Origin: an uncultured Syntrophomonadaceae bacterium
GTDB lineage: Bacteria > Bacillota > Dethiobacteria > DTU022
DNA: 64,000 bases
Assembly (NCBI GenBank): GCA_964492615.1
Contig: CAZBKZ010000002.1
Coordinates: 1,323 to 65,322 of the forward strand
Direction of reading: 5' to 3'
Shown here: positions 3,601 through 25,270 of the stretch, one piece after another
Numbering within the stretch: position 1 is the stretch's first letter
Layout of the letters: each line of letters opens with the position of its first letter
Position numbers and translations under genes: made by a program
Notes under the pieces: generated by a model
The model's input: the letters and a program-made list of their open reading frames with translations, nothing else
The model's database searches: none
Told to the model about the DNA's origin: nothing

Positions 3601-3615
3601 TACCGAACCTCCTGC

Positions 3616-3663
3616 AATATATATTCTTGTTCGAAAATATATTCTCAAATGAGAGTATATATT
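3616..3663. promoter_or_regulatory. Candidate ModE-type operator in the divergent modA / modE-like promoter region. It carries repeated ATATAT/TATATA motifs and an imperfect inverted repeat.
   Basis: AATATATTCTC..GAGAGTATATATT imperfect palindrome, with three ATATAT blocks between the divergent starts. Confidence 0.35.
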
Positions 3664-3772
3664 AAAAATTCCTGGCTGGCAATAATTAATTTGAAAAAAT
3701 TATTATTCATTGTTATGATCCAGTTAGGATATTGCATGTATTTTAGCTAAAATTATCTGTAGAGGTTGGAAA

Positions 3773-5034: not shown

Positions 5035-7752
5035 GTGCTAAAAAAAGTTATAACGGTAAATGGATTGGAAAGAACCCTAATTGTTGAGCCGGAAAGAAGT
5101 TTGGCAAGTGTTCTCAGGGAACAGCTTTTACTGACAGGCTGTAAAGTCGGTTGCAACCAGGGTCAGTGCGGGTGCTGTTCAGTGGTTCTTGATGGCGAGG
5201 TTGTCCGTTCCTGCGTAACGAAGATGAAGCGGGTACCTGATTATGCTGAAATTTGGACCATTGAGGGGATCGGAACCGCCCAAAACCTGCATCCCTTGCA
5301 GGTGGCCTGGATGGCCTATGGTTGTGCCCAGTGTGGTTTTTGCAGTCCGGGCTTTATCATGTCGGCCAAGGTTTTACTGGAGAAGAACCCCGATCCGACC
5401 AGGGAGGAAGTTAGAGACTGGTTCCAGAAAAACCGCAATGCCTGCCGTTGTACCGGTTACAAGCCGCTTGTTGATGCAGTGATGGCGGCGGCCAAGGTTC
5501 TGCGGGGCGAAATGCACAAGGAAGAGCTGCTCTACAAACCGGTGGGCAACAAAATTTACGGCACTAATTACCACCGTCCTTCGGCGATGCAAAAAGTTAC
5601 CGGAACCTGGGACTACGGCGCCGATGTAGCCTTGCAGATGCCCTCTGACACCCTGCGTCTGGCCCTGGTGCAGGCCGAAGTTTCACATGCAAACATCAAG
5701 GGTATTGATACATCTGAAGCGGAAAAGATGCCCGGTGTTTATCAGGTTATCACCCACAAGGATGTAAAAGGTAATAACCGGATTAATGGTATGGTTACTT
5801 TCCCCTCAAACAAGGGAGATGGTTGGGATCGCCCCATCCTTTGTGATGAAAAAGTTTTTCAATACGGTGACACCATTGCCATAGTTGCCGCCGATACGGT
5901 TGAGCATGCCAGGGCGGCAGCCAAAGAAGTTAAAGTGGATCTGGAAGTTTTACCTGCCTATATGAGCGCACCGGCGGCCATGGAGTCCGATGCTATAGAG
6001 ATTCACCCTGGAACTCCAAATGTTTATTTTGAGCAGGGTGTTGAAAAGGGAGAAGACCCGAAACCCTTCATGGAGAACAGCGATCTTGTAACTGTAGAGG
6101 TTAGCACGATCTGCAGCCGTCAGCCTCATCTAATGTTGGAACCAGACTGTGGTTCTGCCTATTTTGATGAAGAAGGACGGTTAACCATCCACTCCAAGAG
6201 TATCGGTATTTACCTGCACCGCGATATGATTTACGAAGGGCTGGGCATTGAGCCAGAAAATCTACGTATTGTGGCCAATCCCACCGGCGGCACCTTTGGG
6301 TATAAATTCTGCCCCACCAACGAAGCTTTACTCGGTGTGGCATGCATGGCTACCGGAAAACCAGTCTCTCTTGTATTTGACATGCACCAGACCATTACCT
6401 ATACCGGAAAACGCTCTCCCGGCTTTGTAACTTGCAAATTGGCTGCAGATAAGGAAGGTAAACTGTTGGCGATGGAGTCAGATTGGACCATTGATCATGG
6501 CCCGTACTCAGAATTTGGAGATCTACTGACCTTGCGCCTCGCTCAGTTTATAGGGGCCGGTTATGATATCCCCAATATTAAGGGTAAAGGACGCACAGTT
6601 TGTACTAATCACGCCTGGGGAGCCCCCTTCAGAGCCTACGGCTCACCGCAGTCTTTCCTGGCTTCTGAAACGGCAATGGATGAGTTGGCGGAAAAACTGG
6701 GCATGGACCCCTTCGACCTGCGCTTTAAAAACATCTATCGTCCCGGAGCGACCACACCGTCACAGCAGGTGCCGGATGTTTACTGTTTTGAGGATATGTT
6801 TAACAAGCTTAGGCCTCACTGGGAAGAAGCGAAAAAACGCTGCAGCGACTTTAACAAACTCGGAAAAAAACGTGGTGTTGGGCTTTCCCTTGGCATTTAC
6901 GGTTGCGGCACCGACGGCCCCGATACCTCGGAAATATTTGTGGAACTGACAAAAGAAGGGGTTACCGTTGGCAGCACCTGGGAAGATCATGGGCAAGGGG
7001 CAGATATCGGCACCTTGACCCATGCCCACGAAACCTTGCGTCAGGCAGGAATCAAGCCGGAGCAGATCAGACTGGTCATGAACGATATGGCCCTTTCACC
7101 CGATAGCGGCCCCTCAGGCGGGAGCCGGCAAAACCTGGTGACCGGTAATGCACTCAGGGTTGGCAGTGAAAGACTCATTGAAGCGATGCGTAAGGAGGAC
7201 GGAACATTCCGCACCTATGACGAGATGGTTGCAGAAAATATACCGCTACGTTATGAGGGTAAGTGGACTGCAAGCATGTGCACCATGTGTGATGCTGAAA
7301 AAGGGCAGGGGGATCCTTTTGCCGGATATGTTTACGAACTCTTTATGCCCGAGGTGGAAGTTGACCTTGAATCGGGCAAGGCAAAAGTGGTTAAGTTTAC
7401 CACGGTTGTAGACTGCGGCACCATTTCGAACAAGAGTGCAGTAGACGGCCAAATCTACGGAGGGTTGGCCCAGGGCATAGGTCTGGCTCTTTCCGAGGAC
7501 TTTGACGATTTGGAAGTTCACACTAACCTCCTGAAATGCGGACTTCCCTATATTAAGGATGTTCCCGATGACATGGAGATCATTTACAATGTTGAGCCGC
7601 GCCCCCATGGGCCTTATGGCGCTTCCGGAGTCGGTGAAGGCCCGTTGACCGCACCTCACCCGGCTATACTTAACGCAATCTATAATGCCTGCGGTGTCAG
7701 GATTTATGATATTCCAGCACTCCCGGAAAAGATTAAAGCCAAGCTTAAATAA
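5035..7752 (+). CDS. mop: Molybdopterin aldehyde oxidoreductase of the D. gigas MOP type: an N-terminal plant-type [2Fe-2S] domain fused to a xanthine-dehydrogenase-family Mo-MCD domain, with no FAD domain.
   Basis: GTG start with a GAGGAG RBS. Cys motifs CNQGQCGCCS and CAQCGFCSPGF. The a/b-hammerhead and Moco-binding regions are present. 905 aa. Confidence 0.85.
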   Translation: MLKKVITVNGLERTLIVEPERSLASVLREQLLLTGCKVGCNQGQCGCCSVVLDGEVVRSCVTKMKRVPDYAEIWTIEGIGTAQNLHPLQVAWMAYGCAQCGFCSPGFIMSAKVLLEKNPDPTREEVRDWFQKNRNACRCTGYKPLVDAVMAAAKVLRGEMHKEELLYKPVGNKIYGTNYHRPSAMQKVTGTWDYGADVALQMPSDTLRLALVQAEVSHANIKGIDTSEAEKMPGVYQVITHKDVKGNNRINGMVTFPSNKGDGWDRPILCDEKVFQYGDTIAIVAADTVEHARAAAKEVKVDLEVLPAYMSAPAAMESDAIEIHPGTPNVYFEQGVEKGEDPKPFMENSDLVTVEVSTICSRQPHLMLEPDCGSAYFDEEGRLTIHSKSIGIYLHRDMIYEGLGIEPENLRIVANPTGGTFGYKFCPTNEALLGVACMATGKPVSLVFDMHQTITYTGKRSPGFVTCKLAADKEGKLLAMESDWTIDHGPYSEFGDLLTLRLAQFIGAGYDIPNIKGKGRTVCTNHAWGAPFRAYGSPQSFLASETAMDELAEKLGMDPFDLRFKNIYRPGATTPSQQVPDVYCFEDMFNKLRPHWEEAKKRCSDFNKLGKKRGVGLSLGIYGCGTDGPDTSEIFVELTKEGVTVGSTWEDHGQGADIGTLTHAHETLRQAGIKPEQIRLVMNDMALSPDSGPSGGSRQNLVTGNALRVGSERLIEAMRKEDGTFRTYDEMVAENIPLRYEGKWTASMCTMCDAEKGQGDPFAGYVYELFMPEVEVDLESGKAKVVKFTTVVDCGTISNKSAVDGQIYGGLAQGIGLALSEDFDDLEVHTNLLKCGLPYIKDVPDDMEIIYNVEPRPHGPYGASGVGEGPLTAPHPAILNAIYNACGVRIYDIPALPEKIKAKLK

Positions 7753-7782
7753 AAGGTCGGTTTTGTGGGTTCACCTTGAGGA

Positions 7783-7810
7783 GAACTGTCGTATCTTGTG
7801 GCGACAGTTC
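7783..7810 (+). promoter_or_regulatory. Stem-loop GAACTGTCG-N10-CGACAGTTC between mop and the downstream oxidoreductase gene.
   Basis: Perfect 9-bp inverted repeat. There is no U-tract, so it is either a weak terminator/attenuator or an operator. Confidence 0.35.
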
Positions 7811-7863
7811 GCTTCAACCGCTATCATCATGCAACATAGACCGATTCAAAGGGAGAGCTCAGG

Positions 7864-10210
7864 ATGGATCATAATTATTTGCACGAGGTAGAGGCTAAAT
7901 GCACACAGGATCAGCAGCCAGGATGTGTGGCAGGTTGTCCTGTCCATGTTGACATTCCAGCATTGATTGCAGCTGTAAAAAAAAGGCGATTACTCGAAAG
8001 GTTTTGCCGTATTTAGAAAACATGTACCATTTCCCGGGATCATCAGCCATATTTGCAACCAGCCCTGTCAACTATCGTGCAAAAGGTCTGAGATAGATCA
8101 TCCTGTTGCAATTAATATCATGGAGCGGGTTTGTGTGCTGACTGGGGATGGCAGTTTGTCGGAAAGGTCGGGCGCCCTGCCGGTGAAAGAACGCAACAAA
8201 AAAGCAGCTGTTATCGGAGCCGGTTTAAGCGGCCTTACTGTTGCATGGGAGTTGGTAAAAAAGGGTTACCCTGTAACCATCTTCGAGCTTTCAGAACAGC
8301 CTGGAGGAAAAATTTTAAAAGAATCTGAAGAACGAATGCCGCGTCATATTATTGAAAAAGATTTTGCCCCGCTAATCAACAACTCCATGCTTGAAACCTG
8401 TTGGGGCTCCGGGGTTGGTGTCAGCGGCGGGATGGTTAACTTTGCCGATCTCCTTGCCCGTTATGATGCCATTTACCTAGGTACAGGTTCAAACTACGCG
8501 CTTCCTGCAGGGGTGGATCTCACCTTTGATGAGCAGGGGTTCCCCAGTCATGATCCAAAAACCCTGGCAACGGCAATTGACAAGGTCTTCATCGGCGGCA
8601 GCCTAATCCTGGAGAGCGAGAAAAGATCACCCATTGAATCAGTTAGCCATGGTAAAATAGCTGCTCTTTCTATTGACCGTTTCCTGCAGGGCGTATCACT
8701 GACTGCAGGGCGCTCACGAGAAGGGGCTTATGAAACCCTACTCTATACATCACTTAAAGGCATTTCCCCTGAACCTGTATATATTGAAGATCGACCGGGA
8801 GAATTACCAAATTCGGAACAAACTTTACAGGAGGCAAATCGCTGCCTTTTATGTACCTGCCTTGAATGTGTAAAGGCCTGCCCCTACCTGGAGCATTATG
8901 GGTCATACCCGAAAAAGTATGTCAGGGAGATTCACAATAACCTGATTATCATTAAAGGTGGGCGTGGCGCAAATGAAAAGATCAATAGCTGCAGTCTCTG
9001 CGGTTTATGTGCCGAAGTTTGTCCTGGCAATTTAGACATGGGCGAGTTTTGTTTCAAAGCCCGGAAGAAGATGGTCGAGACTGGCAAAATGCCCCCTTCA
9101 GCGCACGATTTTGCCTTGCAGGATATGGCATTCAGCACAAGTGAGCTGGTTGCCCTGCATAGGCACCAACCGGGTTTTAGCAAGAGCAGGGCCCTGTTTT
9201 TTCCCGGTTGCCAGTTAAGTGCTTCATCTCCACATTATGTAGGAAGGCTTTATACTTACCTGAGGGAAAAAATTGATGGTGGAGTTGGTTTGAGTCTCAG
9301 TTGCTGCGGCGCGCCTGCCCAATGGGCGGGCAGGGAAGACCTTTTTAATGAAAATATTGATTTACTGAAAAAAAACTGGACCGCATTAGGCAACCCGGCC
9401 ATTATTACCGGCTGCCCGACCTGCTTCAGTGTTTTCAGAAAGGTGTTGCCCGATCTGGATTGTGAGACAATCTGGACAGTTCTTGACCGGGTTGGCCTGC
9501 CAGAAAACAGCGGTGCCGGGGTTAAGATGAAAAAACTGGCTGTTCACGATGCCTGCACCACAAGGTACGACAAACCTCTGCAAAATAGTATTCGTAACAT
9601 TTTACTTGCTCTTGGGCACCAGGTACAAGAGCTTGAAAACAGCCGGGAGACAACAACCTGTTGTGGTTATGGCGGTTTGATGAGTTATGTTAACCGTGAG
9701 GTTGCCCGTAAAGTGGTTGAAAAGCGTATCGCCGAAAACCCTGAAGATTACCTGGCATACTGTGCCATCTGCCGCGACCATTTTGCGGCCCGGGGCAAAA
9801 GAACTTACCACCTTCTTGATCTCATTTTTGGCAGTTCTGACCACGACCTTGCAGGCGATCAAGGCCCTGGTTTTTCAAAACGCCAGGAAAACCGCTACCG
9901 CTGCAAGAAGAGCCTCTTAAAAAAAGTCTGGGGTGAAGAGATTCAAACCAGGGAGCCTGGCTTTGAACTGGCCATCAGCGCCGCCGTGCGCAGCAGCATG
10001 GAGGAGAGGATGATTCTTACCGGTGATATAATCGAAGTGATCAGTCATGCCCGCAGCAGTGGAAATGTAATGGAAAATACTGAAACAGGGACCATGGTCG
10101 CTTACTATAAACACCGCAACGTTACCTACTGGGTTGAATTCACCGTGGAAAACGAAAGTATCTATCACATTCAAAAAGCGTACAGCCACCGCCTAGTAAT
10201 TAAGGGGTAA
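7864..10210 (+). pseudogene. GltD-like NAD(P)H:FAD oxidoreductase fused to 2x[4Fe-4S] ferredoxin and HdrD/GlpC-like 2xCCG domains. It is interrupted by a +1 frameshift in an A8 tract at 7977-7984.
   Basis: ATG 7864 has a GGGAGAG RBS and encodes MDHNYLHEVEAKCTQDQQPGCVAGCPVHVDIP, the GltD N-terminal Fe-S motif. Removing one A joins it in-frame to ICNQPCQLSC...AVIGAGLSGL and so to ORF 8120..10210. Two CCG motifs are present (SCCGAP, TCCGYGG). Confidence 0.7.
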
Positions 10211-10221
10211 AGGAGAACCAA

Positions 10222-10416
10222 ATGAGTGAAACCAGTAAAATATTATGCAGCCGCTGCGGTATTTACTTGACCATGGGCACGGTTACCCTTACCTACCTGG
10301 AGGCCAGTTTCCCGGCTGAACTTTACAAGTGCGCTAAATGCGGCCTGGTCTACATCCCCGAGGATTTGGCTCTGGGCAAGATGGCGCAGGTAGAGAAAAC
10401 ACTGGAAGACAAGTAA
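10222..10416 (+). CDS. Small zinc-ribbon protein (CxxC-N24-CxxC).
   Basis: 64 aa with an AGGAGA RBS. Two CxxC pairs. Confidence 0.6.
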   Translation: MSETSKILCSRCGIYLTMGTVTLTYLEASFPAELYKCAKCGLVYIPEDLALGKMAQVEKTLEDK

Positions 10417-10448
10417 ACCAGCGGTATGTTTTAGGAGGTTAAAAGAAA

Positions 10449-10748
10449 ATGGTTAATAGAAAAACCGGGCCTGATCCGGAGGAAGAGCGCGCTGAAGTAA
10501 TCGAGGCTGACACTGTCACTATTGAAGTAGTTGACAAGACAACAGGCTGCCTTTATCGCCGACAGGTTCCCCTGTGTTATCACGAAAATAGCAACGGAAT
10601 CATACTAAAGGGCGAAAATCTTGAAGGGAAAAGTGCGGTTCTCGCGTTGCTGTCCGACCAAGCTCTTGCTAAATACAGTGACTTGATCGGGATGGGGCCG
10701 GATGCACCTACGCATCATAGTACTGAGAAAAAAAAGAGCAAAAGTTGA
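10449..10748 (+). CDS. Hypothetical protein.
   Basis: GGAGG RBS. No recognisable domain. Confidence 0.5.
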   Translation: MVNRKTGPDPEEERAEVIEADTVTIEVVDKTTGCLYRRQVPLCYHENSNGIILKGENLEGKSAVLALLSDQALAKYSDLIGMGPDAPTHHSTEKKKSKS

Positions 10749-10928
10749 ATGCATGCTAAAAATGAAATCCCACGACGCAGGAAAACCAGGTTATATATGA
10801 AAATGGTTTTATTTATTTAGTTGCCTTTGAAAACCATCAGTCCGGGAGGTATAGTTGTAACCGGTCAGTTTGATTGGTTTAATCATATTAATAAAAATGT
10901 GCTGTAATTATGGATGGAGGTATCGGTC

Positions 10929-11336
10929 ATGAATATTACAAAACGGGTAAATGAATTACTTTTACAAGGTCACTGCTGCAGCCAGATCATCATGAAAATG
11001 GGATTAGACAAAATGCAAAAAGAAAATGAAGATCTGGTAATCGCGATGAAAGGGTTGTCCCAGGGTATGTATGCCGGGACTGTCTGCGGTACTCTTTCTG
11101 CCGCTTCCTGCCTGCTCTTTCTCCTCTCAGTGAGCATGGGGCAAGATATGAGCACGGAACTGACTGGTTGGTTCGAAAAAGAGTTCGGAGTAATCGATTG
11201 TCCCGAATTGCTGGGCGATGACCCTGTTGGAGCAAGCTTGAGCCTCTGTCCGGAAATCATTCAGCGAACCTTTGCCGAAGTCCTCGAAGTAGCAGAACGT
11301 TATAATCTTTCCTGGGTGGAAATAACGAATGGGTGA
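10929..11336 (+). CDS. C_GCAxxG_C_C family putative redox-active protein.
   Basis: Cys pattern GHCCSQ / VCGTLSAASC / DCP / LCP. Start chosen at the ATG with a GGAGG RBS; the upstream ATG lies inside the RBS. Confidence 0.6.
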   Translation: MNITKRVNELLLQGHCCSQIIMKMGLDKMQKENEDLVIAMKGLSQGMYAGTVCGTLSAASCLLFLLSVSMGQDMSTELTGWFEKEFGVIDCPELLGDDPVGASLSLCPEIIQRTFAEVLEVAERYNLSWVEITNG

Positions 11337-13009: not shown

Positions 13010-16000
13010 TTGAAACGAAGGGATTTTCTTAAACTTACCGGAGTAACTGGCGCAGGCTTGCTCCTTACCGACCTTGGGTTTAACGCAGCGCCGGTTGAAG
13101 CCGCATCTCAAACGATCAGAATTCACAATTCAGAAGAATTTTATTCTGTTTGTACTTTTTGTTCTTGCGGCTGCGGGATGATTTGTAGCGTTAAAGATGG
13201 GAAAATGATTAACCTTGAAGGTGACCCTGATCATATCGTCAGTGAGGGGGCCCTCTGCAGTAAGGGGGCAGCTATGGCGGTAATGCCCAACTCTGATCAA
13301 CGGATCAGGAACCCTCTCTACAGGGCGCCGCGCAGCAACAAGTGGGAAGAAATCAGCTGGGAAGAAGCTATCGACAAGGTTGCCAGGAAATTTGTTGAAA
13401 CCAGGGACGATTACTGGATCAGCGATGAGACTATTGACGGTACCACTTATAAGGTTAACCGCTGCGACGCAGTTAGCTTCATGGGCGGAGCTCAAAACAA
13501 TACAGAGGAATCATATCTCCTTTCTAAGATGTCGAGAATTCTGGGCGCCGTGTATGTAGAGCACCAGGCCAGGGTCTGACACAGTCCCACGGTCGCCAGT
13601 TTAGGCGCCTCATTAGGACGTGGAGCTATGACCAATCACTGGGTTGATTTAAAAAATGCCAAGGTCTTCCTGATCCAGGGTAGCAATGCTGCCGAGAATC
13701 ACCCCATGGCAGTAAAATGGATGCTGGAAGCAAAGAAAAAAGGGGCAATCATTATTCATGTCGACCCCCGTTACACCAGGACCTCATCCATTGCCGATAT
13801 TCATGCCCAGATTCGTCCGGGTGCGGATATCGCATTTCTAAATTCAATTATTAACTACATTATTACCAATAACCTTTATGATGAAGACTTTGTTATTAAC
13901 CATACCAATGCGCTATTGATTGCCAACGAAGAATTCGATTACCAGGACGGCCTTTTTTCGGGCTATAATGACGGTAAATTCAGTTACACCAACCTTTCCT
14001 GGGGTTATACCCTTGATGAAGAAAGCAAGCCTATTAAGGCGGAAAGTCTCGATGATCCTCGCTCTGTCTTCAGCAAAGCCAAGGAATTCTTCAAGCGCTA
14101 TGATTTTAAGGTGGCTTCCGATATCTGCGGGGTTCCCGAGGAAAAGATCAAGCTAATTGCCGATACCCTGGTTAACAATAAGCCTGGAACAATCTGCTAC
14201 GCCCTGGGGATGACCCAGCATACTACCGGCGTTCAGGGGATTCGTTCTTTCGGTATTCTCCAAATGCTCTTAGGGAACCTGGGCAAGCCGGGCAGCGGTG
14301 TTAACGCCATGCGTGGTGAGCCCAATGTGCAGGGAGCAACCGATATGGCCATGTTGTTCCATATCATTCCCGGGTACCTGGCTGTTCCCAACCACGATGT
14401 CGTGGATCTTGATACTTGGACTTCGCGGACCGGTACTTTTCGCCGGACTTTTATGACCAGTATTCTCAAAGCGTGGTTTGGTGACCACGCCCAACCGGAA
14501 AATGATTTTTGTTTTAATTGGTTACCGAAAAAGAACGGGCGTGAAAACTACTCACTCTTCAGGATCTTTGAGACAGCCCTTGATAAAAAGATGAAGTTTC
14601 TCTATATCATGGGTCAGAACCCCATGGTTACCAACCCTAACCTGAACCTGGTGCACGAATCACTGGGCAACCTGGATATGCTGGTTTCTGTTGACCTCTT
14701 TATGACCGAAACCGCCGCTTTCTGGGAAAAACCGGGTGTGGATCCGAGTACGCTTGATACGGAGGTAATTTTCCTCCCTGCGGCCTCTTTCCTCGAAAAA
14801 GAAGGAACCCTGGTTAATTCAGGGCGGATGGTTCAGTGGCGCTATACCGGGATTAAACCGGTCGGCAATTCAAAAACCGACCTGGAGATCATTGATTTGC
14901 TTTTTAACCGCATCCGCGAGCTTTACCAGGGTTCAAGCGACAGCAAGGATGAGCCCATTTTAAAGGCCAACTGGAACTACGAAGCAGAAGATTCTCCCTC
15001 TTTCTCAGAGGAAGTATTGAAGGAAATCAACGGTTACAATCTGGCCACCGGTGAACTCTTAAAAGGGATTGGCGAACTTAAGCCTGACGGAACCACTGCC
15101 GCGGGGAACTGGCTGTATGCCGGAATCTTCGCCAACAACCAGAACCATTCCAAGCGCAAGGATAACATTAACGATCCCGGCGGCCTTGGCATCTATCCCG
15201 GCTTTGCCTGGACCTGGCCCGGAAACTGTCACGTCTTATATAATCGTGCGTCTTGTGATGCTGAAGGTAAGCCTTATGATGAAGCCAATAAGTGTATCTG
15301 GTGGGATGAGGAAAAGGGTATGTGGACCGGGTATGACACTCCCGACGTGCCGAACAGGAACGACGGACCCGATACACCCAACGGCAAAAGACCCTTCCGG
15401 ATGGCCGGGGAAGGTCTCGCCCGTATTCTTGCCGGGCCCTACCAGGATCCCTTTGCCAATCAGCTTCTGCCCAGGGATTCATCAAGCGTCCCTGCCGACG
15501 GCCCGCTTCCGGAGCACTATGAACCCTTTGAGAGCCCTACAGAAAACGTTTTGCATCCCAACGTCCCAGTCAACCCCTGTGTTAAGTATCCCCGAATTCC
15601 GGATAAGCAGCCAATCGGTACGGCAGCGGATTACCCCTACGTTCTCTGTACATCAAGCATGGCAGAGCACTGGTGTGCCGGGACTCAAACCCGTAACATG
15701 CCCTGGTTAAACGAACTGCAGCCAGAAACATTTATTGAAATACCGAAAAACCTGGCTGCCGAAAAGGGCATCAAGAATGGTGACTGGGTAAAAGTCTGGT
15801 CTGCCCGGGGCGAAGTTGAGGCCAAGGCCCAGGTAACCCACCGTATCCATCCCCTTAAAATTAACGGCAAGGAGGTTGATGTGGTCTGGATGCCGTATAA
15901 CTGGGGATACAAGGGCCTTAGTCAGGCTGCCAGCACAAACTATGTGACTATTGATGCAGGCGATCCGAATACCTGGATCCAGGAAACAAAGTGTTGTCTG

Positions 16001-16021
16001 GTAAACCTGGATAAGGCTTAA
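13010..16021 (+). CDS. fdhA: Formate dehydrogenase catalytic (alpha) subunit. It is a selenoprotein (in-frame UGA = Sec at 13577-13579) with a Tat signal.
   Basis: Twin-arginine signal MKRRDFLKLTGV. Fe-S motif CTFCSCGCGM. Track ORFs 13010..13579 and 13628..16021 are in the same frame and are joined by HQARV-U-HSPTVASLG, the classic Sec motif. The molybdopterin domains follow. Confidence 0.9.
13591..13609 (+). ncRNA. Bacterial SECIS upper stem-loop for fdhA (cis-acting mRNA element).
   Basis: Hairpin GGUCGCC-AGUUUA-GGCGCC with a bulged U. It begins exactly 11 nt 3' of the UGA, the spacing seen in E. coli fdhF. A GU is present in the apical loop. Confidence 0.55.
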
Positions 16022-16142
16022 TCGATTATTGTAGCGCAAATTAAGAACCACTGGTTCTGGATGCTGAAGAATATAAACCCGTTAGCCTGCCGACAGCAGG
16101 CTCACGTGAAGCACACCTAAAACTACTCAAAGGCGGTTTAAA

Positions 16143-17021
16143 ATGAGCAACCAGGAATGGAGCAGCTTTGATAAATGGCTTAAAGAGCATCCTTATTTAA
16201 ATGAAATAGGAAGCTTCCACAGAGTTTTGTCAAAAGCTATTGAGGGTTTTGATAAAGAGCAATTCAGTAAAGATTTGCCGGTATCTGACTTAGAAGAAAT
16301 AAAGCAGGGATACAGTAAGGGTGTACCCTTGCTCAGCTCTTTAACGGAGATCAATATGGTTACTGGAATAGCAGGCAGCCTGTTTAAAAAAATAGTTAAT
16401 GCTCTGCTTGAGGCCGATTTACCTTCTAAAACGCTAGAACAGGTTAAAGCCCTTAGAGGTTATATTGAAAAGGTTCCTGATCTTCCAAGAAGGTTAATAA
16501 GGCTGGTTATTAAGGGCAGTAGTGATTCGAAACCTGAAGAGCTTGAATCTGTTTTTAACGATGTAAACGAAGGGTTTGTTAATTTTCTGGCCTGGTCCTC
16601 CTTATCTGCAATCCTTGAGCCTTTGAGAGAAGTAACTGGTGAGTTGCTGGAAGAGAAACCCTGGAGGAAGGGTTACTGTCCTTTGTGTGGGCATTTGCCG
16701 GCGATGGGCCAGCTAATAAGAACAAAAAGAGGGCGGGAACGGGAATTGATCTGCGGATGCTGCAAAATGAAATGGACCTATCGGCGCATTGGCTGTCCCT
16801 ACTGCGGAAACGAAAATGTCAATACGCTGAAACTGATTGAATTTGTTGAAATGCCCGAAATGCGCCTGGATACATGTGAAGAGTGCAAGGCTTATGTAAA
16901 GACATACATAAATCAGGGTAATGAACAGGTTGCCCTCGCAGATTGGTCTACCTTACACCTTGATCTTATCGGAAAAAATAAAGGATTTCAGAGGGTTGAT
17001 GAGTTTTTCTATGAACTTTAA
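16143..17021 (+). CDS. fdhE: Formate dehydrogenase accessory protein FdhE.
   Basis: Four CxxC pairs (CPLCGH, CGCC, CPYCGN, CEEC), typical of FdhE. Confidence 0.85.
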   Translation: MSNQEWSSFDKWLKEHPYLNEIGSFHRVLSKAIEGFDKEQFSKDLPVSDLEEIKQGYSKGVPLLSSLTEINMVTGIAGSLFKKIVNALLEADLPSKTLEQVKALRGYIEKVPDLPRRLIRLVIKGSSDSKPEELESVFNDVNEGFVNFLAWSSLSAILEPLREVTGELLEEKPWRKGYCPLCGHLPAMGQLIRTKRGRERELICGCCKMKWTYRRIGCPYCGNENVNTLKLIEFVEMPEMRLDTCEECKAYVKTYINQGNEQVALADWSTLHLDLIGKNKGFQRVDEFFYEL

Positions 17022-18210
17022 TCAAAATATATATTTGGATAATGCTGCTACTGGCTTTCCTAGGCCTGCAATCGTAACCGATTCAGTTAGTTGCTGGATG
17101 CTCGAAGAAGGCGGTTCTCCCGGTCGCGGTCATCATTTTCTGTCTCGCCGGGCCGGTGATCAGGTGTCAAAGATTCGCCGGCAGGTAGCCCGTTTTTTTG
17201 GGGTTAATGAAGAGTTCAGGGTTGCTTTTACCTTTGGTGCAACTGATGCATTGAACATGGCGATTAAAGGAATCCTGCGAAAGGACGATCACGTTATTAT
17301 CTCTGGAATGGAGCATAATTCTGTACTACGGCCTCTGCGCCATCTGGAAGCTGAAGGTTTAATCAGTATTGATGTTATATCCTGTAATGAAGAAGGCTAT
17401 CTGGTTGAAAATTTAATTTGGGAAGCCTTTCATGAAAAAACAAAATTAATAGTTATTAACCACGCTTCAAATGTAACAGGCAGTATACAGGCTGTTGCTG
17501 AGATAGGGGCGGAAATCCGTCGTCGGGGAGCATATTTGCTGCTTGATGCAGCCCAGTCAACTGGAAATATTCCGATCAAAATTGGTGAACTGAATGCTGA
17601 TATGATAGTTTTTGCCGGGCACAAGGGGCTTTTTGCCCTCCCTGGGGTAGGCGGTATGATTATTGGTGAGCGGATCAATCAACTAAATACATGGCGACAG
17701 GGAGGAACCGGCTATAATTCAAAATCGGAGACTCAGCCACTTAATTGGCCGGAAGCATTTGAAGCCGGAACAATGAATATGCCAGGTATAATATCACTTG
17801 GTAAAGGGATAGAATATATTGAGGAACAAGGCCTGGAAGCAATTGCAAGCCAGAAGATGGCTCATCTAAAATACCTGTGGGATACCTTATCGGAAATTGA
17901 AGGAATAAAGTTATACGGACCTAATCCGGAAAAGCCCAGGGTAGCGGTTCTCTCATTAAATATAACAGACTGGGAACCTGACGATGTTGCAGAAATATTG
18001 CAGCATAACTATAAGGTTCAGGTTCGTTCCGGGCTGCACTGTGCGCCGCTGGCCCATAATACCCTGGGTACAATGCCCAATGGTTCAGTCAGAATCAGTC
18101 CCGGGTATTTTACTAAGCAGGAAGACCTGGATACGGTTGTGCAGGCGATTAAGAATATGGCTTTAAGCAGAGTCGGCTGGAATCTTTTCAATGAAGCCCC
18201 GGCTAATTAA
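17011..18210 (+). CDS. Class-V aminotransferase: a group-II cysteine desulfurase or selenocysteine lyase (SufS/CsdA-like).
   Basis: PLP-binding Lys in FAGHKGL. Active-site RSGLHCAPLAH. Overlaps the fdhE 3' end. Alternative ATG at 16999. Confidence 0.8.
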   Translation: MNFNQNIYLDNAATGFPRPAIVTDSVSCWMLEEGGSPGRGHHFLSRRAGDQVSKIRRQVARFFGVNEEFRVAFTFGATDALNMAIKGILRKDDHVIISGMEHNSVLRPLRHLEAEGLISIDVISCNEEGYLVENLIWEAFHEKTKLIVINHASNVTGSIQAVAEIGAEIRRRGAYLLLDAAQSTGNIPIKIGELNADMIVFAGHKGLFALPGVGGMIIGERINQLNTWRQGGTGYNSKSETQPLNWPEAFEAGTMNMPGIISLGKGIEYIEEQGLEAIASQKMAHLKYLWDTLSEIEGIKLYGPNPEKPRVAVLSLNITDWEPDDVAEILQHNYKVQVRSGLHCAPLAHNTLGTMPNGSVRISPGYFTKQEDLDTVVQAIKNMALSRVGWNLFNEAPAN

Positions 18211-18345
18211 TTTGGGGTTTTGAACCGGGGAACAGGGCTTTGCGGAGATATTGTATCTTGTCAGGTGGTGATTTTACAGATCTGCTAGTCTTAGTATTGC
18301 CATATGCTGGTATAAACCAAGTAAAGTAAATGGTGGTGATAATTA

Positions 18346-19713
18346 GTGACATTAACATTTGATAGAGGGGTATTTCTGCCCCATTATAAGGAATCAACTG
18401 AAAATGAGCCTATAGAATCAATTTCTATGCCGGAAGAGATTGTAATGCCAATGAGTCAGCATGTCGGGGCACCATGTAACCCTACCGTCAGCGTTGGCGA
18501 TCAAGTGAATATTGGGCAGAAAATCGGAGAAAGCCTTACCATGATTAGCGCGCCAATTCATTCAAGTGTGGATGGTGTTGTAACATCTATCGAACTGCGA
18601 CCATATTTTACCGGAAGTAAGGTTAACAGTGTTGTTATCAAGCCTGATGAAAATCAAAGTGATTTTAATAAAAAGGAAAATGATATCGGTAAGTTGGATC
18701 GGGAAAAAATTGTAGAGATGATCAAAGAAGCGGGAATTGTAGGTATGGGAGGAGCTGCCTTCCCTACCCATGTTAAGCTGAACCCGCCAAAAGAGATTGA
18801 CCGGGTTATTATTAACGCCTGTGAATGTGAACCTTACTTAACATGCGATCATAGGATGCTTGTCGAGATGACTGAAAAGTGTGTAGAAGGAGCTAAAATA
18901 ATTGCAAAAGTTGTCGGGGCTCGTCAGATAATATTTGGCATTGAAACCAACAAGCCTGATGCGGCAGAAAAAATTAGCAGCACTATTTTTAAGGATGATG
19001 ATATTTCCGTTGCTATGCTCGATGTTAAGTACCCGCAGGGCGCCGAGAAACAGTTAATAAAAGCAACGGTTAATCGTGAAGTTCCACCCGGGAAGCTACC
19101 TTTTGAGGTAGGGGTTGTTGTTCACAATGTAGCTACCTGTATTGCCATCTATGAAGCAGTCCGGTATGAAAAGCCTCTTTATGAGAGAGTTTTAACTGTT
19201 ACTGGCGACGGAATTGCCAAATCTGCAAATGTTAAAGCCCTGATTGGCACACCAATTGGACATATTATCCATGAGTGTGGAGGGTTTAAAGGTATTGTCA
19301 GTGGTGAAGTGAAAATTGATACCAGCGATGTCCGTTATCCTGTATATGCTCCGCCGGAAGCCAAGGCCAAGGTTATTATGGGTGGACCCATGACCGGTTT
19401 TGCCCAGCAGAGCCTTGATGTCCCTATAGTGAAAGGGACGGGAGGCATCCTGATCTTCACTCCGGAGATGATTAATGCCAGTGAATACCTGGCCTGTGTT
19501 CGCTGTTCCAACTGTGTTCAGCACTGCCCGATGGGGCTTTATCCAAACTATATAGGGACATATGCCGAAACAGGACGCTACAACCATTCAATCGATTGGG
19601 GAGCTTTAGATTGCTTTGAGTGTGGTGTCTGTGTGTATGTTTGCCCATCGAACAGGCCCATCGTCAGGTTTGTCAGGGAAGTGAAACAGTTTGCGGCGCG
19701 AAAAGCGGATTAA
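18346..19713 (+). CDS. RnfC-like Fe-S flavoprotein (RnfC_N barrel, NuoF-like nucleotide/FMN fold, 2x[4Fe-4S]).
   Basis: PMSQHVGAPCNPTVSVGDQV (RnfC N-terminus). GMGGAAFPTHVKL. CVRCSNCVQHCP and CFECGVCVYVCP. GTG start. Confidence 0.75.
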   Translation: MTLTFDRGVFLPHYKESTENEPIESISMPEEIVMPMSQHVGAPCNPTVSVGDQVNIGQKIGESLTMISAPIHSSVDGVVTSIELRPYFTGSKVNSVVIKPDENQSDFNKKENDIGKLDREKIVEMIKEAGIVGMGGAAFPTHVKLNPPKEIDRVIINACECEPYLTCDHRMLVEMTEKCVEGAKIIAKVVGARQIIFGIETNKPDAAEKISSTIFKDDDISVAMLDVKYPQGAEKQLIKATVNREVPPGKLPFEVGVVVHNVATCIAIYEAVRYEKPLYERVLTVTGDGIAKSANVKALIGTPIGHIIHECGGFKGIVSGEVKIDTSDVRYPVYAPPEAKAKVIMGGPMTGFAQQSLDVPIVKGTGGILIFTPEMINASEYLACVRCSNCVQHCPMGLYPNYIGTYAETGRYNHSIDWGALDCFECGVCVYVCPSNRPIVRFVREVKQFAARKAD

Positions 19714-19772
19714 TACTTGAGAACTTTTAAGCGCAGCTAAGATAAAAGAATACAAAGGAGGGATTTTCTAAG

Positions 19773-20768
19773 GTGAATAATCAGCTCAGGTTAACGGTAA
19801 CACCATCTCCGCACCTGCATTCAAAAGAATCAGTATCGAATGCAATGCGCGATGTATTTATTGCATTAATTCCGATCACTCTTGTATCTGTCTATATATA
19901 CAAGTCATATGCTCTCCTGTTGATCGGTGTTTGCCTGGCCATGGCGGCATTGACGGAATTGCTTTTCCGTAAAATCAGGAGACAACGAGCTACGCTAAAC
20001 GACGGAAGCGCCATGGTTACCGGTCTGTTGGTCGCGCTATGTTTTTCACCTGGTACAGCCTGGTGGACGGCAGCACTCGCAGTGTTCATCGGTATTGGCC
20101 TGGCCAAGGAGTTGATGGGTGGCTTGGGATGGAATCGTTATAACCCTGCATTATTCGGACGCCTTTCAGTTATTCTGCTGATACCGATATTCCACCAGGT
20201 TACATATGTTTTTTCTCCTCTTAAGCAGGATTTCGGCAGTGTTGATGTTTTAACACAAGCTACTCCATTGGCCCTGATGATCCAGGGTTCAGGTTATCCT
20301 AGCTTGCTCCAGATGTTTTTAGCCCACCAGGGCGGTTCGCTCGGTGAGACATCTGCGCTGGCGCTCTTAATCGGTGGCCTCTACTTGCTTTACAAGAAAC
20401 ATATAACCTGGCATACGCCTTTATCGGTTATTGCCGCAGTGGTGGTAATGGCCCTGCTTTTTGGAACAAACTTACTTGGCGCCGGGGCACCGCTTTATCA
20501 CCTATTAGGCGGAGGAGTATTATTGGGGGCTTTCTTCATGGCAACCGACTGGGTAACCAGCCCTATTACTCCTACAGGCAAAATTATTTTTGGGGCATCT
20601 ATTGGGATCCTCTTAATGGTTTTCCGCCTCTTTCTTGCGCCAACTGAAGGGATGGCATTTTCTATTCTAATAATGAACGCATTTGTCCCATTAATTGACC
20701 GTTATACTAAGCGGCTAAAGTTTGGCGAGATTAAAAAATCTGCTACTGAAACTGTTATGGGAACGTAG
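19773..20768 (+). CDS. RnfD/NqrB-family integral membrane protein with a covalent-FMN threonine motif.
   Basis: Polytopic membrane protein. DVLTQATPLA matches the RnfD/NqrB FMN-attachment motif (xTGATPL). AAGGAGGG RBS and a GTG start. Confidence 0.75.
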   Translation: MNNQLRLTVTPSPHLHSKESVSNAMRDVFIALIPITLVSVYIYKSYALLLIGVCLAMAALTELLFRKIRRQRATLNDGSAMVTGLLVALCFSPGTAWWTAALAVFIGIGLAKELMGGLGWNRYNPALFGRLSVILLIPIFHQVTYVFSPLKQDFGSVDVLTQATPLALMIQGSGYPSLLQMFLAHQGGSLGETSALALLIGGLYLLYKKHITWHTPLSVIAAVVVMALLFGTNLLGAGAPLYHLLGGGVLLGAFFMATDWVTSPITPTGKIIFGASIGILLMVFRLFLAPTEGMAFSILIMNAFVPLIDRYTKRLKFGEIKKSATETVMGT

Positions 20769-20780
20769 GGGGGGTAAACC

Positions 20781-21569
20781 ATGACAAAATCAATGTTAAT
20801 AGACATTTCCAAGTGTATGGGTTGTCGCGGCTGCCAGGTAGCCTGCAAGCAGTGGAACCAACTGCCAGCTGAAAATACCCGTAATACAGGGACTTATGAA
20901 AACCCACCTCGTTTTTCTGCTCATACATGGACTAAAATTGGTTTCCAGGAATATACAACTGAAGAAGGAATGGACACCTGGATTTTTACCAAACTGGGAT
21001 GTATGCATTGCAGTGATGCAGCTTGCATAAAAGCCTGCCCGGCAGGTGCAATAAGTCATACTGAATTTGGCACGGTTAGAATTGATGAAAAGAGGTGTAT
21101 CGGGTGTAACTACTGCATAGCCAACTGTACATTTAATGTAGTTGGATTTGATCAGGCAGCAAATCTGGCTAAAAAATGCACCTTTTGTTATGATCGAATC
21201 TCTGCCGGTGAAATACCGGCCTGTGCCAAGACTTGTCCAACCGGGGCAATCATGTACGGTGATCGTAGTGATATGATCAGTTTAGCACAGGAGCGTTTAG
21301 CTGAACTGAAAAGAGGTGCTTTCCCCCGGGCTGAAATTTATGGGCTTAAAGAACTGGACGGTTTGGGCATGATGTACATTTTGCCTGAAGGTAAAAGTAG
21401 TGCAATGGCAAAATATGCTCTTCCGGAGAACCCGAGAGTGCCGCTTTCAACTGAAGTTTGGAATTACATCTTCAAACCTGTTCGGATCATCCTGGTTGCT
21501 GCACTTGGTTTTGCTTTATGGATTAACCGGAGTGAATCGAAAAAGGAACAAACAGAAAAGAGCGCTTAG
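20781..21569 (+). CDS. fdhB: Formate dehydrogenase iron-sulfur (beta) subunit with four [4Fe-4S] clusters and a C-terminal membrane anchor.
   Basis: Four ferredoxin-like Cys clusters. The C-terminal hydrophobic helix is IILVAALGFALWI. GGGGGGG RBS. Confidence 0.85.
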   Translation: MTKSMLIDISKCMGCRGCQVACKQWNQLPAENTRNTGTYENPPRFSAHTWTKIGFQEYTTEEGMDTWIFTKLGCMHCSDAACIKACPAGAISHTEFGTVRIDEKRCIGCNYCIANCTFNVVGFDQAANLAKKCTFCYDRISAGEIPACAKTCPTGAIMYGDRSDMISLAQERLAELKRGAFPRAEIYGLKELDGLGMMYILPEGKSSAMAKYALPENPRVPLSTEVWNYIFKPVRIILVAALGFALWINRSESKKEQTEKSA

Positions 21570-23129: not shown

Positions 23130-23507
23130 TTACTTAATCGGTATATCATTAAAATGCTTCTCGTATAGTTGGTCTACGGCATTAATAGATTCTTCCTTAA
23201 AAGCTATGTATGCTCTCACCAGTTTTCTTGCGGTATCTGTTAGCTCTGAACCACTTTGCGATCCTCCGATATGTTTATCAATTAATTTAAATCCCAAGGT
23301 TTTTTCAGTAGCAGTTATTTTCCCCCATGCTGCCCGGTAAGACATGCCAAGTTTTGCAGCAGCCTTATTAATCGATCCGCATTCTTCGATTGCCTGAAAT
23401 AAGGCCAGTCGTCCTCCTCCGAAAATAACCTGTTTGTTGTATTCAATCCAGATTTTACACCTGGGCTGCAGCGATAGCTTTTTAACTATTTTCTTTTTAT
23501 CTTCCAA
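23130..23507 (-). CDS. Second ModE N-terminal-like winged-HTH regulator with no Mop domains.
   Basis: GSINKAAAKLGMSYRAAWGKITATEKTLGFKLI is homologous to the HTH in 3773..4129. Confidence 0.7.
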   Translation of the reverse strand: MEDKKKIVKKLSLQPRCKIWIEYNKQVIFGGGRLALFQAIEECGSINKAAAKLGMSYRAAWGKITATEKTLGFKLIDKHIGGSQSGSELTDTARKLVRAYIAFKEESINAVDQLYEKHFNDIPIK

Positions 23508-23662
23508 ACCAATCCACCTCCGGTATAGTAATTCTCTAATAATAGTTTATATCCTTCTCCGTCATATCTACTGTTTTAGATAAGTTTAGGGCTTGGTAAT
23601 TACTTAATAATATGGAATAATTAAAATCATGTTAATAAGCGTTAATTAAGGAGGGTACACTA

Positions 23663-23824
23663 TTGAGAACACCTGTACTGACGAGGAAAGGTTTACGACA
23701 AAAGAAAAGAATAGTAAAAACTAATAGTTCTGGCAGTAATGCAGGTTCTTGCCGGGGGGTTAAATACCCTTGTACTTATCGTTGCAAGAAATGTATATTT
23801 GATACAATGTATTGTGGTAAGTGA
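23663..23824 (+). CDS. Unannotated 53-aa cysteine-rich mini-protein (five Cys in the C-terminal 25 aa).
   Basis: Consensus RBS AAGGAGGG, then 7 nt, then TTG. Sequence MRTPVLTRKGLRQKKRIVKTNSSGSNAGSCRGVKYPCTYRCKKCIFDTMYCGK. It is below the ORF-track size cutoff. Confidence 0.4.
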   Translation: MRTPVLTRKGLRQKKRIVKTNSSGSNAGSCRGVKYPCTYRCKKCIFDTMYCGK

Positions 23825-23857
23825 GGAGGGAAAATTTTTAAGGTCATTATGTCTATC

Positions 23858-23886
23858 TTGACATAATGTAAATTTTTCATTATAAT
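23858..23886 (+). promoter_or_regulatory. Perfect consensus sigma-A promoter TTGACA-N17-TATAAT upstream of moeA paralog 2.
   Basis: Exact consensus hexamers with a 17-nt spacer, about 80 nt upstream of the moeA2 start. Confidence 0.6.
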
Positions 23887-23968
23887 TTATTGACCCTTTA
23901 ATTATTTTACTATAATTAAGAAAATTAACAATATAATATTATATTCATGATTAATAATACAATAATAA

Positions 23969-25270
23969 ATGCCGGAGGTGTTATCACTGGAAGAGAATAT
24001 TTTGAATCCGCAAGTTACCTCTGAAAACCTGGTATCTACAGTTTTCCCGGAAAAAGTTGAATCACCCATAAGTCTTGAGTTTGCCCAGGAACTGCTTATA
24101 CAGCATACAAAAGCTATAGGTTTTGAAAGTATCAGTATTAGTTCAGCCTTAAACCGGGTTCTTCATGAAGACATTATCGCACCTTTAAATATTCCACCGT
24201 TTAACCGATCTCCACTGGATGGTTTTGTCCTTCGGGCAGCGGACATCGCAAAGGCTTCGCCTGCCAACCCGGTCTACATTGAGGTTAACCAGAACATTCC
24301 GGCCGGCAGCCCCAGTCAGAAGGAGGTTGGGGAAAACCAGGCAGCCAGGATCATGACGGGAGCCCCGATACCTTCCGGAGCAGATGTGATAATAAAGATT
24401 GAAGATGTTAATTATTCAGGTAATCATGTGGAGGTTACAAAGGCATTATCGCCATTTGAAAATGTTTGTTTTGCCGGAGAGGATATTGAGCAGGGCGAAG
24501 CAGTTCTTTGCGGGGGAGAGTATATTTGTCCGGCAGGAATTGGAATCCTTGCAGCGTTGGGCATTGACGTTGTAGATGTAAATAGCATACCCCGGGTGGC
24601 GATTATCGGTACCGGTGATGAGTTGATTTCTGTTCAAGATGAATTAAGGCCGGGTAAAATTTATGACAGTAATACGTTTTCCCTTGCTTCATATGTTCAA
24701 CAAATAGGTGCTTGCCCGGTGTTTGCCGGTACTGTTACAGATGATACAGAATTAATAGCTGTTAAAATACTGGAAAACCTTAAACAAGCGGATATGGTTA
24801 TAACTACCGGTGGGGTTTCAGTCGGTGATAGTGATCTGGTTTGTAATGCTCTCCGCTCAATTGGCGCTAGTATATTGTTTCATCGTATTGATATGCGTCC
24901 CGGAACTCCTGCCTTGGGAGCTGAGAAAGATGGCAAGTTGATAATTTGCCTTTCCGGAAATAAGGCGGCAGCCTTTGTTACTTTTCAGCTATTGGCACGT
25001 CCGGCCATAGCATCTCTGATGGGGATAAAAGCTTGCTGCCCTCCTGTGGTAACAGCTGTGTTGGGCGAGCATTATCGTAAAACAAGTGGGCAGCGTAATC
25101 TGTTACGGGGACAGTTGTCCTTTGATGATTGTATGTTGAAGGTTAATATTGCCGGGAAACAAAATCCTGGGATAATCAGATCAACCTTGAACTGCAATGC
25201 TTTAATTGATGTCCCTGCAAATTTCGGACCTTTGAATGCTGGTACGCGGGTTAGTATATTTTTATTGTAG
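23969..25270 (+). CDS. moeA: Molybdopterin molybdenumtransferase MoeA (paralog 2).
   Basis: PPFNRSPLDGFVLRAADI motif. MoeA domain order. Confidence 0.85.
   Translation: MPEVLSLEENILNPQVTSENLVSTVFPEKVESPISLEFAQELLIQHTKAIGFESISISSALNRVLHEDIIAPLNIPPFNRSPLDGFVLRAADIAKASPANPVYIEVNQNIPAGSPSQKEVGENQAARIMTGAPIPSGADVIIKIEDVNYSGNHVEVTKALSPFENVCFAGEDIEQGEAVLCGGEYICPAGIGILAALGIDVVDVNSIPRVAIIGTGDELISVQDELRPGKIYDSNTFSLASYVQQIGACPVFAGTVTDDTELIAVKILENLKQADMVITTGGVSVGDSDLVCNALRSIGASILFHRIDMRPGTPALGAEKDGKLIICLSGNKAAAFVTFQLLARPAIASLMGIKACCPPVVTAVLGEHYRKTSGQRNLLRGQLSFDDCMLKVNIAGKQNPGIIRSTLNCNALIDVPANFGPLNAGTRVSIFLL

Follow-up and report, generated by a model that had tools for sequence, protein, structure and literature searches.

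The subject of this study is a small gene in a 64-kb stretch of DNA from an uncultured Syntrophomonadaceae bacterium; by the window we mean this whole stretch. The gene sits in a 460-nt gap between a gene for a ModE-like helix-turn-helix (HTH) regulator and moeA2, it was missed when genes were called in its genome, and it encodes a cysteine-rich peptide of 53 residues that we refer to as the mini-protein. Loci carrying relatives are designated by L-numbers and the proteins of the family by P-numbers. The features of the locus, in window coordinates, are as follows.

23130-23507, minus strand: HTH regulator of 125 aa that resembles the ModE N-terminal domain and lacks a molbindin domain; divergent gene on the upstream side.
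23593-23621, plus strand: predicted promoter-like site of the mini-gene, TTGGTA-17-AATAAT with TG (extended -10), 9/12 match to the consensus.
23648-23655, plus strand: ribosome-binding site (RBS) AAGGAGGG, 7 nt 5' of the start codon; AAGGAGG is kept and aligned in L007 and L019.
23663-23824, plus strand: open reading frame (ORF) of the mini-protein, from the ORF listing, 53 aa, TTG start, TGA stop; codons 1-25 encode a basic, variable N-terminal half, followed by a conserved tetracysteine core; P0001 and P0002, its homologues, agree with it in length and position.
23738-23812, plus strand: conserved core N26-Y50, NAGSCRGVKYPCTYRCKKCIFDTMY, from the family alignments, with invariant C30, V33, C37, C41, C44 and Y50.
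23845-23878, plus strand: perfect 9-bp inverted repeat CATTATGTC-N6-GACATAATG (23845-23868) plus a T-run; putative terminator-like hairpin of the mini-gene and, at the same time, putative operator-like palindrome.
23858-23886, plus strand: moeA2 promoter, TTGACA-17-TATAAT, sigma-70-type consensus, 12/12; both hexamers are kept in L007 and L019.
23969-25270, plus strand: moeA2 (molybdopterin molybdotransferase family), the downstream neighbour in the window clade.

Read directly from the sequence, the RBS, a strong one, is followed by the 7-nt spacer TACACTA and by the TTG codon at 23663, and translation of 23663-23824 gives MRTPVLTRKGLRQKKRIVKTNSSGSNAGSCRGVKYPCTYRCKKCIFDTMYCGK. The peptide contains five cysteines (residues 30, 37, 41, 44 and 51), of which the four in the core are encoded at 23750 (C30), 23771 (C37), 23783 (C41) and 23792 (C44); it has eight lysine or arginine residues among residues 1-25 and a net charge of about +13 over the whole sequence. 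The first-pass annotation of the window had described the RBS, the 7-nt spacer, the TTG start, the 53-codon frame and a perfect promoter downstream of it, and all of these are present, the promoter agreeing with the consensus at 12 of 12 positions. The product of the ModE-like gene matches PF00126, and it also matches TIGR00637 with an E-value of 1e-18, which is below the cut-off of that model.

A word-indexed search returned one 53-aa homologue, P0001. This protein (in L007) and P0002 (in L019) are encoded directly upstream of a moeA2 orthologue and beside moeA1 and a ModE-like gene. The RBS and the start codon are aligned in the window, L007 and L019, the start being ATG in the relatives versus TTG in the window, and the presence of the same 53-codon frame, with RBS and start aligned, upstream of moeA2 in both other loci argues that the frame is more than a chance ORF. 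When the three moeA2-linked homologues are compared by the Nei-Gojobori method, codons 26-53 show a proportion of synonymous differences (pS) of 0.82-0.93, which is saturated, versus a proportion of nonsynonymous differences (pN) of only 0.08-0.14, and the pairwise differences by codon position in this region are 5/3/13, 1/3/16 and 4/2/17. Substitutions fall mostly at third codon positions, and the same periodicity is seen across the 22-codon core in every other clade. Codons 2-25 are near-neutral (dN/dS 0.5-1.1), with the frame, the length and the basic character retained. Six metagenomic copies of the window organism are identical across the entire intergenic region. The first-pass annotation had proposed to judge the ORF by its frame in close relatives and by its synonymous sites; the frame is kept, and the synonymous sites are saturated while pN is low. 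These comparisons, with purifying selection on the Cys-containing C-terminal half and the same frame upstream of moeA2 in L007 and L019, make it almost certain that 23663-23824 is a real, if unannotated, protein-coding gene.

The gene also appears to have transcription signals of its own. Upstream of the RBS, the extended -10 block (ATATGnAATAAT/ATATGATATAAT) of the predicted promoter is conserved in the window, L007 and L019. Downstream of the stop codon, the inverted repeat is predicted to form a hairpin of -10.6 kcal/mol in the window (centroid, z = -3) and one of -19.5 kcal/mol with a 16-bp stem in L007; the repeat is conserved in L007 and L019 as sequence, beyond what pairing would require, and it overlaps the -35 of the moeA2 promoter. 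Copies of this palindrome, CATTATG-N10-CATAATG, are found at 23845-23868 in the window, at 2716-2739 and 4668-4691 in L007 and at 3196-3219 in L019, where the chance expectation is 0.02 copies per window. The second copy in L007 lies upstream of an aldehyde dehydrogenase gene (461 aa, L007 2897-4282) that separates the ModE-like gene from the mini-gene, an insertion with no counterpart in the window and L019; since the insertion carries its own copy of the palindrome, it is suggested that the aldehyde dehydrogenase has been recruited into the same regulon. The palindrome may act as the terminator of the mini-gene and simultaneously as an operator, most plausibly of the adjacent ModE-like regulator; binding there by this truncated, HTH-only protein is probable.

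The promoter-like site ahead of the mini-gene, and the hairpin and T-run that precede a separate moeA2 promoter, argue that the mini-gene is a transcription unit of its own rather than a leader of moeA2. A cis-acting leader peptide (upstream ORF, uORF) or a chance ORF in the regulatory region of moeA2 would be in keeping with the location of the frame in the 460-nt intergenic region upstream of moeA2 and with the frequency of chance small ORFs in AT-rich DNA. Such an explanation is exceedingly improbable, since the amino-acid sequence has been conserved in lineages whose downstream genes differ, the synonymous sites are saturated, a terminator-like hairpin and a full promoter stand between the mini-gene and moeA2, and no Rfam element is found at E <= 10. 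An attenuation leader peptide or regulatory uORF was rejected because of the purifying selection on the protein, the varied downstream genes and the separate moeA2 promoter. A known structured RNA, such as a Moco/Wco riboswitch, was rejected as well, because covariance-model searches of Rfam found nothing at E <= 10 in 23300-24200, nor anything that reached the gathering score across the whole window.

The mini-protein belongs to a family of small proteins. A two-sequence HMMER profile searched against 1.84e9 representatives gave seven matches, which added five further small proteins and one repeat artefact; the latter, the repeat protein P0003, was rejected as low-complexity noise. Larger iterated profiles searched against 5.8e9 proteins yielded 18-19 clusters and were complemented by a metagenome scan and by six-frame scans with hidden Markov models (HMMs). 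In total the family comprises about 22 distinct proteins of 51-96 aa, each present in single copy per locus in the window and the loci scanned. The window peptide matches the family HMM with 74.9 bits and an E-value of 3e-22 and is the sole match in the window. It is not in the 5.8-billion-cluster collection, which makes under-calling of such genes evident, and none of 15 billion predicted proteins has exactly this sequence. A pattern scan of the GTDB representative genomes, a collection from which the window organism is apparently missing, gave a single match, in L010 (Woeseiaceae); it was dismissed as due to chance, since the GC-rich DNA there codes in a different frame. No plasmid sequence was matched by tblastn. 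Searches of Pfam, NCBIfam and PDB sequences with the peptide and all members assigned no family and returned only weak N-terminal zinc-ribbon matches and sub-threshold matches to ScfB, and in the literature searched (on the Cys motif, on PerR-associated small proteins and on clusters of formate dehydrogenase with RnfC/RnfD) neither the family nor the module discussed below is described. The family is new, rare and previously unnamed, although its kind is familiar, small Cys4 metalloproteins being already well known.

All members share, near the C-terminus of proteins of 50-100 aa, the core [GC]-[ST]-C-x-[GS]-V-[KR]-[YH]-[PTF]-C-x-[YF]-x-C-x-x-C-[IFYM]-[FY]-x-x-x-Y, in short form G-S-C-x-G-V-K-Y-P-C-x-Y-H-C-K-x-C-[FIY]-[FY]-D-x-x-Y, in which the H position is variable, and the window peptide belongs to the Cx6Cx3Cx2C family so defined. 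Our alignments show that C30, V33, C37, C41, C44 and Y50 are invariant across the roughly 22 members and that S29 and Y39 are near-invariant. The first-pass annotation had drawn attention to five cysteines and a lysine-rich N-terminus. Four of the five, spaced Cx6Cx3Cx2C and all inside 15 residues, are indeed invariant, whereas at the position of C51 relatives have Y, H, L, N or other residues. The N-terminus of the window peptide is as basic as described, but it varies across the family: a K/R-rich tail occurs in the window clade and several others, while P0007, 8 and 18-22 carry a CxxC-x11-12-CxxC zinc-ribbon-like module with weak Pfam and NCBIfam zinc-ribbon matches. The host contigs range from 41% to 66% GC, the GC-rich ones carrying genes for RND efflux and a sigma-54 activator, which indicates that the family spans very different anaerobic lineages. 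The relative found next closest after P0001 and P0002 is P0012, with 47-49% overall identity and 18 of 22 identical positions in the core.

Examination of the gene neighbourhoods reveals two recurrent contexts. The first is a formate dehydrogenase (FDH)/Rnf-like module, represented in the window by the following cluster.

13010-21569, plus strand: FDH/Rnf-like module encoding a selenocysteine (Sec) formate dehydrogenase alpha subunit (TGA 13577-79), an FdhE-like protein, a cysteine desulfurase, an RnfC-like protein, an RnfD-like protein and an FdnH-like 4Fe-4S protein.

The FDH alpha subunit carries a twin-arginine translocation (TAT) signal and is split by the in-frame TGA at 13577-79, whose context, HQARV*HSPTV, is that of a classic Sec site; the FdnH-like protein is of the four-cluster type, and the module usually lies beside such a TAT-signal, Sec-split FDH alpha gene and an FdhE-like gene. 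The cluster at 13010-21569 has no cytochrome b gamma subunit, and the pairing of FDH with RnfC/RnfD recurs in the unrelated contigs L015, L021, L026 and L034. In eight lineages (the window, L007, L019, L015/31, L021, L026/27, L028 and L034) the FdnH/RnfC/RnfD module or its Sec-FDH is found within about 2.5 kb of the mini-gene. The arrangement differs among them: the mini-gene is located two genes beyond the FdnH-like gene in the window, L007 and L019, directly 3' of RnfC on the same strand in L026/27 and L034, and convergent with RnfD in L015/31 and L021; L031, a relative of L015, has the RnfD-like gene only, and the L028 contig has FDH alpha only. That the linkage survives altered gene order and orientation points to a functional coupling of the mini-protein to this module.

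The second context consists of PerR-type operons, found in three lineages (L011/29, L024 and L035/36), in which a Fur/PerR gene, a second Cys-rich ORF of 41-43 aa and the mini-gene are followed by genes for RUBY_RBDX, desulfoferrodoxin, flavodiiron and rubredoxin proteins. The second Cys-rich mini-ORF (e.g. MAVWKCSLCGKEKETRCRPSKCECGATKEEMVKAETPKEKK) is likewise unannotated and is located at 1845-1970 in L024, 728-859 in L035 and 832-963 in L036; in these oxidative-stress operons its frame overlaps the Fur/PerR gene at the 3' end of the latter, and the Cx6Cx3Cx2C gene comes immediately afterwards. We also noted palindromes resembling Fur/Per boxes of the 6-1-6 or 7-1-7 type (TGATAATGATTATTA, TAATAATCGTTATTA, AAATAATTATTATT and ATAATAATTATTAT) in AT-rich promoters at about 1-40 in L021, 6900-6960 in L015, 1995-2015 in L024 and 3735-3760 in L011; each of these candidate boxes belongs to the promoter either of the mini-gene itself or of the perR operon around it. 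Two further loci have other neighbours: in L022 the mini-gene is divergent from nicotianamine-synthase-like genes and FeoAB, and in L032 it lies between a permease gene and CysK.

These contexts bear directly on the place of the gene in a molybdenum-cofactor locus, to which the first-pass annotation had assigned it. The linkage is true in the window clade but not general, and the family-wide link is instead to the FdnH/RnfC/RnfD(+Sec-FDH) module and the PerR-type operons. Since P0012, the next closest relative, resides in a PerR-desulfoferrodoxin operon without Mo genes, the link to moeA2 is clade-specific. This also weakens the proposal that the mini-protein is a Mo/W-specific helper of MoeA2, the thiolates of which would bind molybdate, tungstate or a thiometallate and either deliver it to the second MoeA paralogue or select it for that enzyme. 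In favour of such a helper, the gene is immediately upstream of moeA2 in the window, L007 and L019, even where an aldehyde dehydrogenase gene has been inserted on the ModE-like side, and the window is a Mo/W island with two ModE-like genes, an ABC transporter with an SBP_bac_11 binding protein, an enzyme of the xanthine dehydrogenase family and an FDH. However, the three moeA2-linked loci form one closely related clade, further members likewise lack a nearby moeA, and the hairpin with its T-run and a separate consensus promoter divide the mini-gene from moeA2, and we therefore regard a Mo/W helper as quite improbable. As to the island itself (838-4129 and 5035-11336), the SBP_bac_11 protein of its ATP-binding cassette (ABC) transporter is of the ModA/TupA type, the second ModE-like gene, at 3773-4129, is also HTH-only, the xanthine-dehydrogenase-family aldehyde oxidoreductase has 905 aa, and the island further encodes an HdrA/CCG-domain protein and a C_GCAxxG_C_C protein.

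The PerR-type operons raise another alternative, in which the mini-protein would be a redox- or iron-sensing regulator. Under O2, peroxide or iron stress, its Cys4 site, holding Zn or an Fe-S cluster, would disappear or become oxidised, and this change would control whether the basic tail or zinc ribbon binds nucleic acid, RNA polymerase or a regulator, as in WhiB-like (Wbl) proteins and zinc-thiolate switches. The net charge of about +13 of the window protein and the zinc-ribbon N-terminus of P0007, 8 and 18-22 are compatible with this, as are the position of the gene after Fur/PerR genes in three lineages, the iron-uptake neighbourhood in L022 and the Fur/Per-box-like palindromes upstream of the gene in L024, L021 and L015. 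Wbl proteins are actinobacterial, have 80-120 aa and the pattern C-x(n)-C-x2-C-x5-C; they and the zinc-thiolate redox switches are generally known as small proteins that have four Cys ligands and a basic segment and are associated with redox-stress regulons, all of which recall the mini-protein, while Pfam reveals no sequence similarity between the mini-protein and Wbl. Moreover, no DNA- or RNA-binding domain is detectable, the GC-rich members have no basic charge, the candidate boxes sit in AT-rich promoters, and the tight linkage to RnfC/RnfD suits a subunit or carrier at least equally well. A regulatory mini-protein is an unlikely explanation.

A stand-alone metal or Fe-S mini-protein is the reading to which we now return, and its core invites comparison with several known systems. 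Rubredoxin and desulforedoxin are small Fe(Cys)4 electron carriers of the O2-detoxification operons of anaerobes, and the mini-protein resembles them in its size of about 50 aa, in its four cysteines and in being encoded in the same PerR/desulfoferrodoxin/flavodiiron operons. In an hhalign alignment the first knuckle of rubredoxin, Y-x-C-x-x-C-G-Y-x-Y-D, corresponds to the motif Y-x-C-x-x-C-[FY]-[FY]-D of the mini-protein, an alignment that is not significant and that we treat as a lead. Rubredoxin differs in having two CxxC knuckles about 29 residues apart, compared with the Cx6Cx3Cx2C arrangement within 15 residues of the mini-protein, whose N-terminus is basic or a zinc ribbon; the mini-protein does not match PF00301, and the hhalign comparison gives a probability of 0.2% and an E-value of 0.3. 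FdhE, the rubredoxin-like accessory protein of respiratory formate dehydrogenases, offers a likeness of another sort, as a Cys-rich, putatively metal-binding accessory encoded beside TAT-exported Sec-FDH, with an FdhE-like gene in the same cluster of the window (16143-17021), but FdhE has about 300 aa and four CxxC pairs and shows no homology to the mini-protein. By analogy, the mini-protein would work most like rubredoxin/desulforedoxin-type mini-metalloproteins or Cys4 redox switches.

The segment C37-T-Y-R-C41-K-K-C44 has the CX3CX2C spacing of the radical S-adenosylmethionine (SAM) cluster loop, is invariant in the family and is followed by aromatic residues. Weak alignments to the ScfB model TIGR03974, over its positions ~85-117, are obtained with three members, at 12-15 bits versus a cut-off of 425 and E-values of at least 0.007. 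Radical SAM enzymes, however, have a partial or full TIM-barrel core of more than 200 aa with SAM-binding motifs and an open fourth iron, whereas in the 53-aa mini-protein the fourth invariant cysteine, C30, would close the cluster and leave no site for SAM. Membership of the radical SAM superfamily was rejected because of the length of 53 aa, the invariance of C30 and TIGR03974 scores far below the cut-off, and the resemblance of the loop, which we likewise treat as a lead, may be convergent.

The same resemblance touches on the suggestion, made in the first-pass annotation next to that of a metal-binding mini-protein, that the ORF encodes the precursor of a ribosomally synthesised and post-translationally modified peptide (RiPP). 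The precursor would carry radical-SAM-installed thioethers, of the SCIFF/ranthipeptide or sactipeptide type, and its maturase would be encoded elsewhere. The small size, the Cys-rich C-terminus and a charged N-terminal "leader" would fit; SCIFF precursors, the six-cysteine ranthipeptides of TIGR03973, are likewise Cys-rich peptides of about 45-55 aa with a conserved C-terminal Cys region, from anaerobic Firmicutes. Three members do match the SCIFF maturase model weakly, but the match reflects the CX3CX2C of the enzyme and not its substrate. The mini-protein has another Cys pattern, no TIGR03973 match and no adjacent ScfB-type maturase. We looked for the radical-SAM or peptidase partner proposed earlier across the 64-kb window and about 13 independent contexts: no radical-SAM/SPASM enzyme, dedicated processing peptidase or exporter adjoins the gene in those contexts, no real ORF of the window contains a CX3CX2C motif, and the window has a single peptidase-family gene, for an M20 enzyme, some 9 kb downstream. 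NCBIfam precursor models are not matched, a Gly-Gly or other cleavage motif is absent, and the "leader" is near-neutral (dN/dS 0.5-1.1) and in some members gives way to a zinc ribbon. A RiPP precursor is accordingly highly improbable; of the two guesses in the first-pass annotation, metal binding is the better one, and the RiPP guess finds no support.

Taking together the ORF with its conservation and coding constraint, the invariant residues and the genomic associations, we hold with moderate confidence that the best explanation is a separately transcribed gene for a stand-alone Cys4 metal or Fe-S mini-protein that would serve as a redox-active accessory. That the mini-protein binds a metal or a cluster is probable, judged from four invariant cysteines in about 22 members and strong purifying selection; these two observations support the metal-binding suggestion of the first-pass annotation, while metal binding itself is what we infer from them. 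The product would be a cytoplasmic protein whose functional part is the C-terminal ~25 residues. C30, C37, C41 and C44 are most likely the ligands of a single metal centre, which would be an Fe-S cluster or an Fe/Zn(Cys)4 site, with the last two ligands at the start, that is the N-terminus, of a short aromatic helix, and with C30 as a possible fourth ligand. Clustered thiols with the last pair at a helix N-terminus are typical of small Fe/Zn(Cys)4 or Fe-S sites. The variable N-terminal half, a +8 basic tail in the window and a zinc ribbon in others, probably docks the mini-protein on its partner.

The role of such a protein could be that of a small electron carrier, or of an oxidant-sensitive sensor or protector (guard), for oxygen-labile metalloenzyme systems. 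In the window its chief partner system would be the Sec-formate dehydrogenase/FdnH/RnfC/RnfD module, and in other lineages its host system would be the PerR-controlled superoxide-reductase/flavodiiron operon. A redox-accessory role is favoured because both recurrent contexts are oxygen-sensitive or oxygen-responsive electron-transfer systems of Fe-S, flavin and rubredoxin-type proteins, but taken by itself this assignment is tentative. It is possible, though we consider it unlikely, that there is an undescribed membrane complex in which TAT-exported Sec-FDH and the FdnH-like protein are wired to RnfD- and RnfC-like proteins instead of cytochrome b, forming a transmembrane formate:NAD(+) oxidoreductase, that the mini-protein serves this complex either as a dedicated Fe-S or Fe(Cys)4 subunit or as an oxygen-sensitive guard, and that PerR regulons employ the same four-cysteine module as a novel part of the O2-detoxification chain of anaerobes.

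Several observations weigh against a Cys4 redox accessory. AlphaFold2, run with the window peptide and with a zinc-ribbon member each as first sequence, gave a predicted local distance difference test (pLDDT) score of 52.6 and 53.2, respectively, and these models are unusable; helix appears only at residues 45-50, just after the C41-x2-C44 pair. No confident fold emerges, and the four cysteines of the putative metal site could instead form disulfides or be modification sites. Comparison by hhalign with rubredoxin, desulfoferrodoxin and FdhE revealed no homology. The basic charge is not universal, the GC-rich members being approximately neutral, which makes a common docking mode uncertain. Among the lineages with the Rnf/FDH context, independence is incomplete, the contexts in L022 and L032 match neither main theme, and the family is very rare in databases, which may reflect either under-calling or genuine patchiness.

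Proteins of fewer than 60 aa are routinely missed, and the mini-protein, which is under strong selection, recurs in unrelated anaerobes beside two oxygen-sensitive redox machineries. If it does bind metal, it would represent a new minimal tetracysteine scaffold, a radical-SAM-like CX3CX2C with one extra cysteine, and would provide a handle on both the uncharacterised Sec-FDH/FdnH/RnfC/RnfD module and the PerR-controlled detoxification operons.

Two minor observations concern moeA2. A second promoter-like site, TTGACC-N15-TATAAT, follows immediately on the perfect promoter of moeA2, at 23890-23916, where the 5' region is extremely AT-rich. The called ATG of moeA2 at 23969 precedes a conserved GGAGGT at 23974-79; the start called in L007 is a TTG located 8 nt past that motif, and the position aligned with this TTG is CTG in the window (23987) and in L019. 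From this alignment, the true start of moeA2 may lie about 18 nt downstream of the called one, possibly at the CTG.

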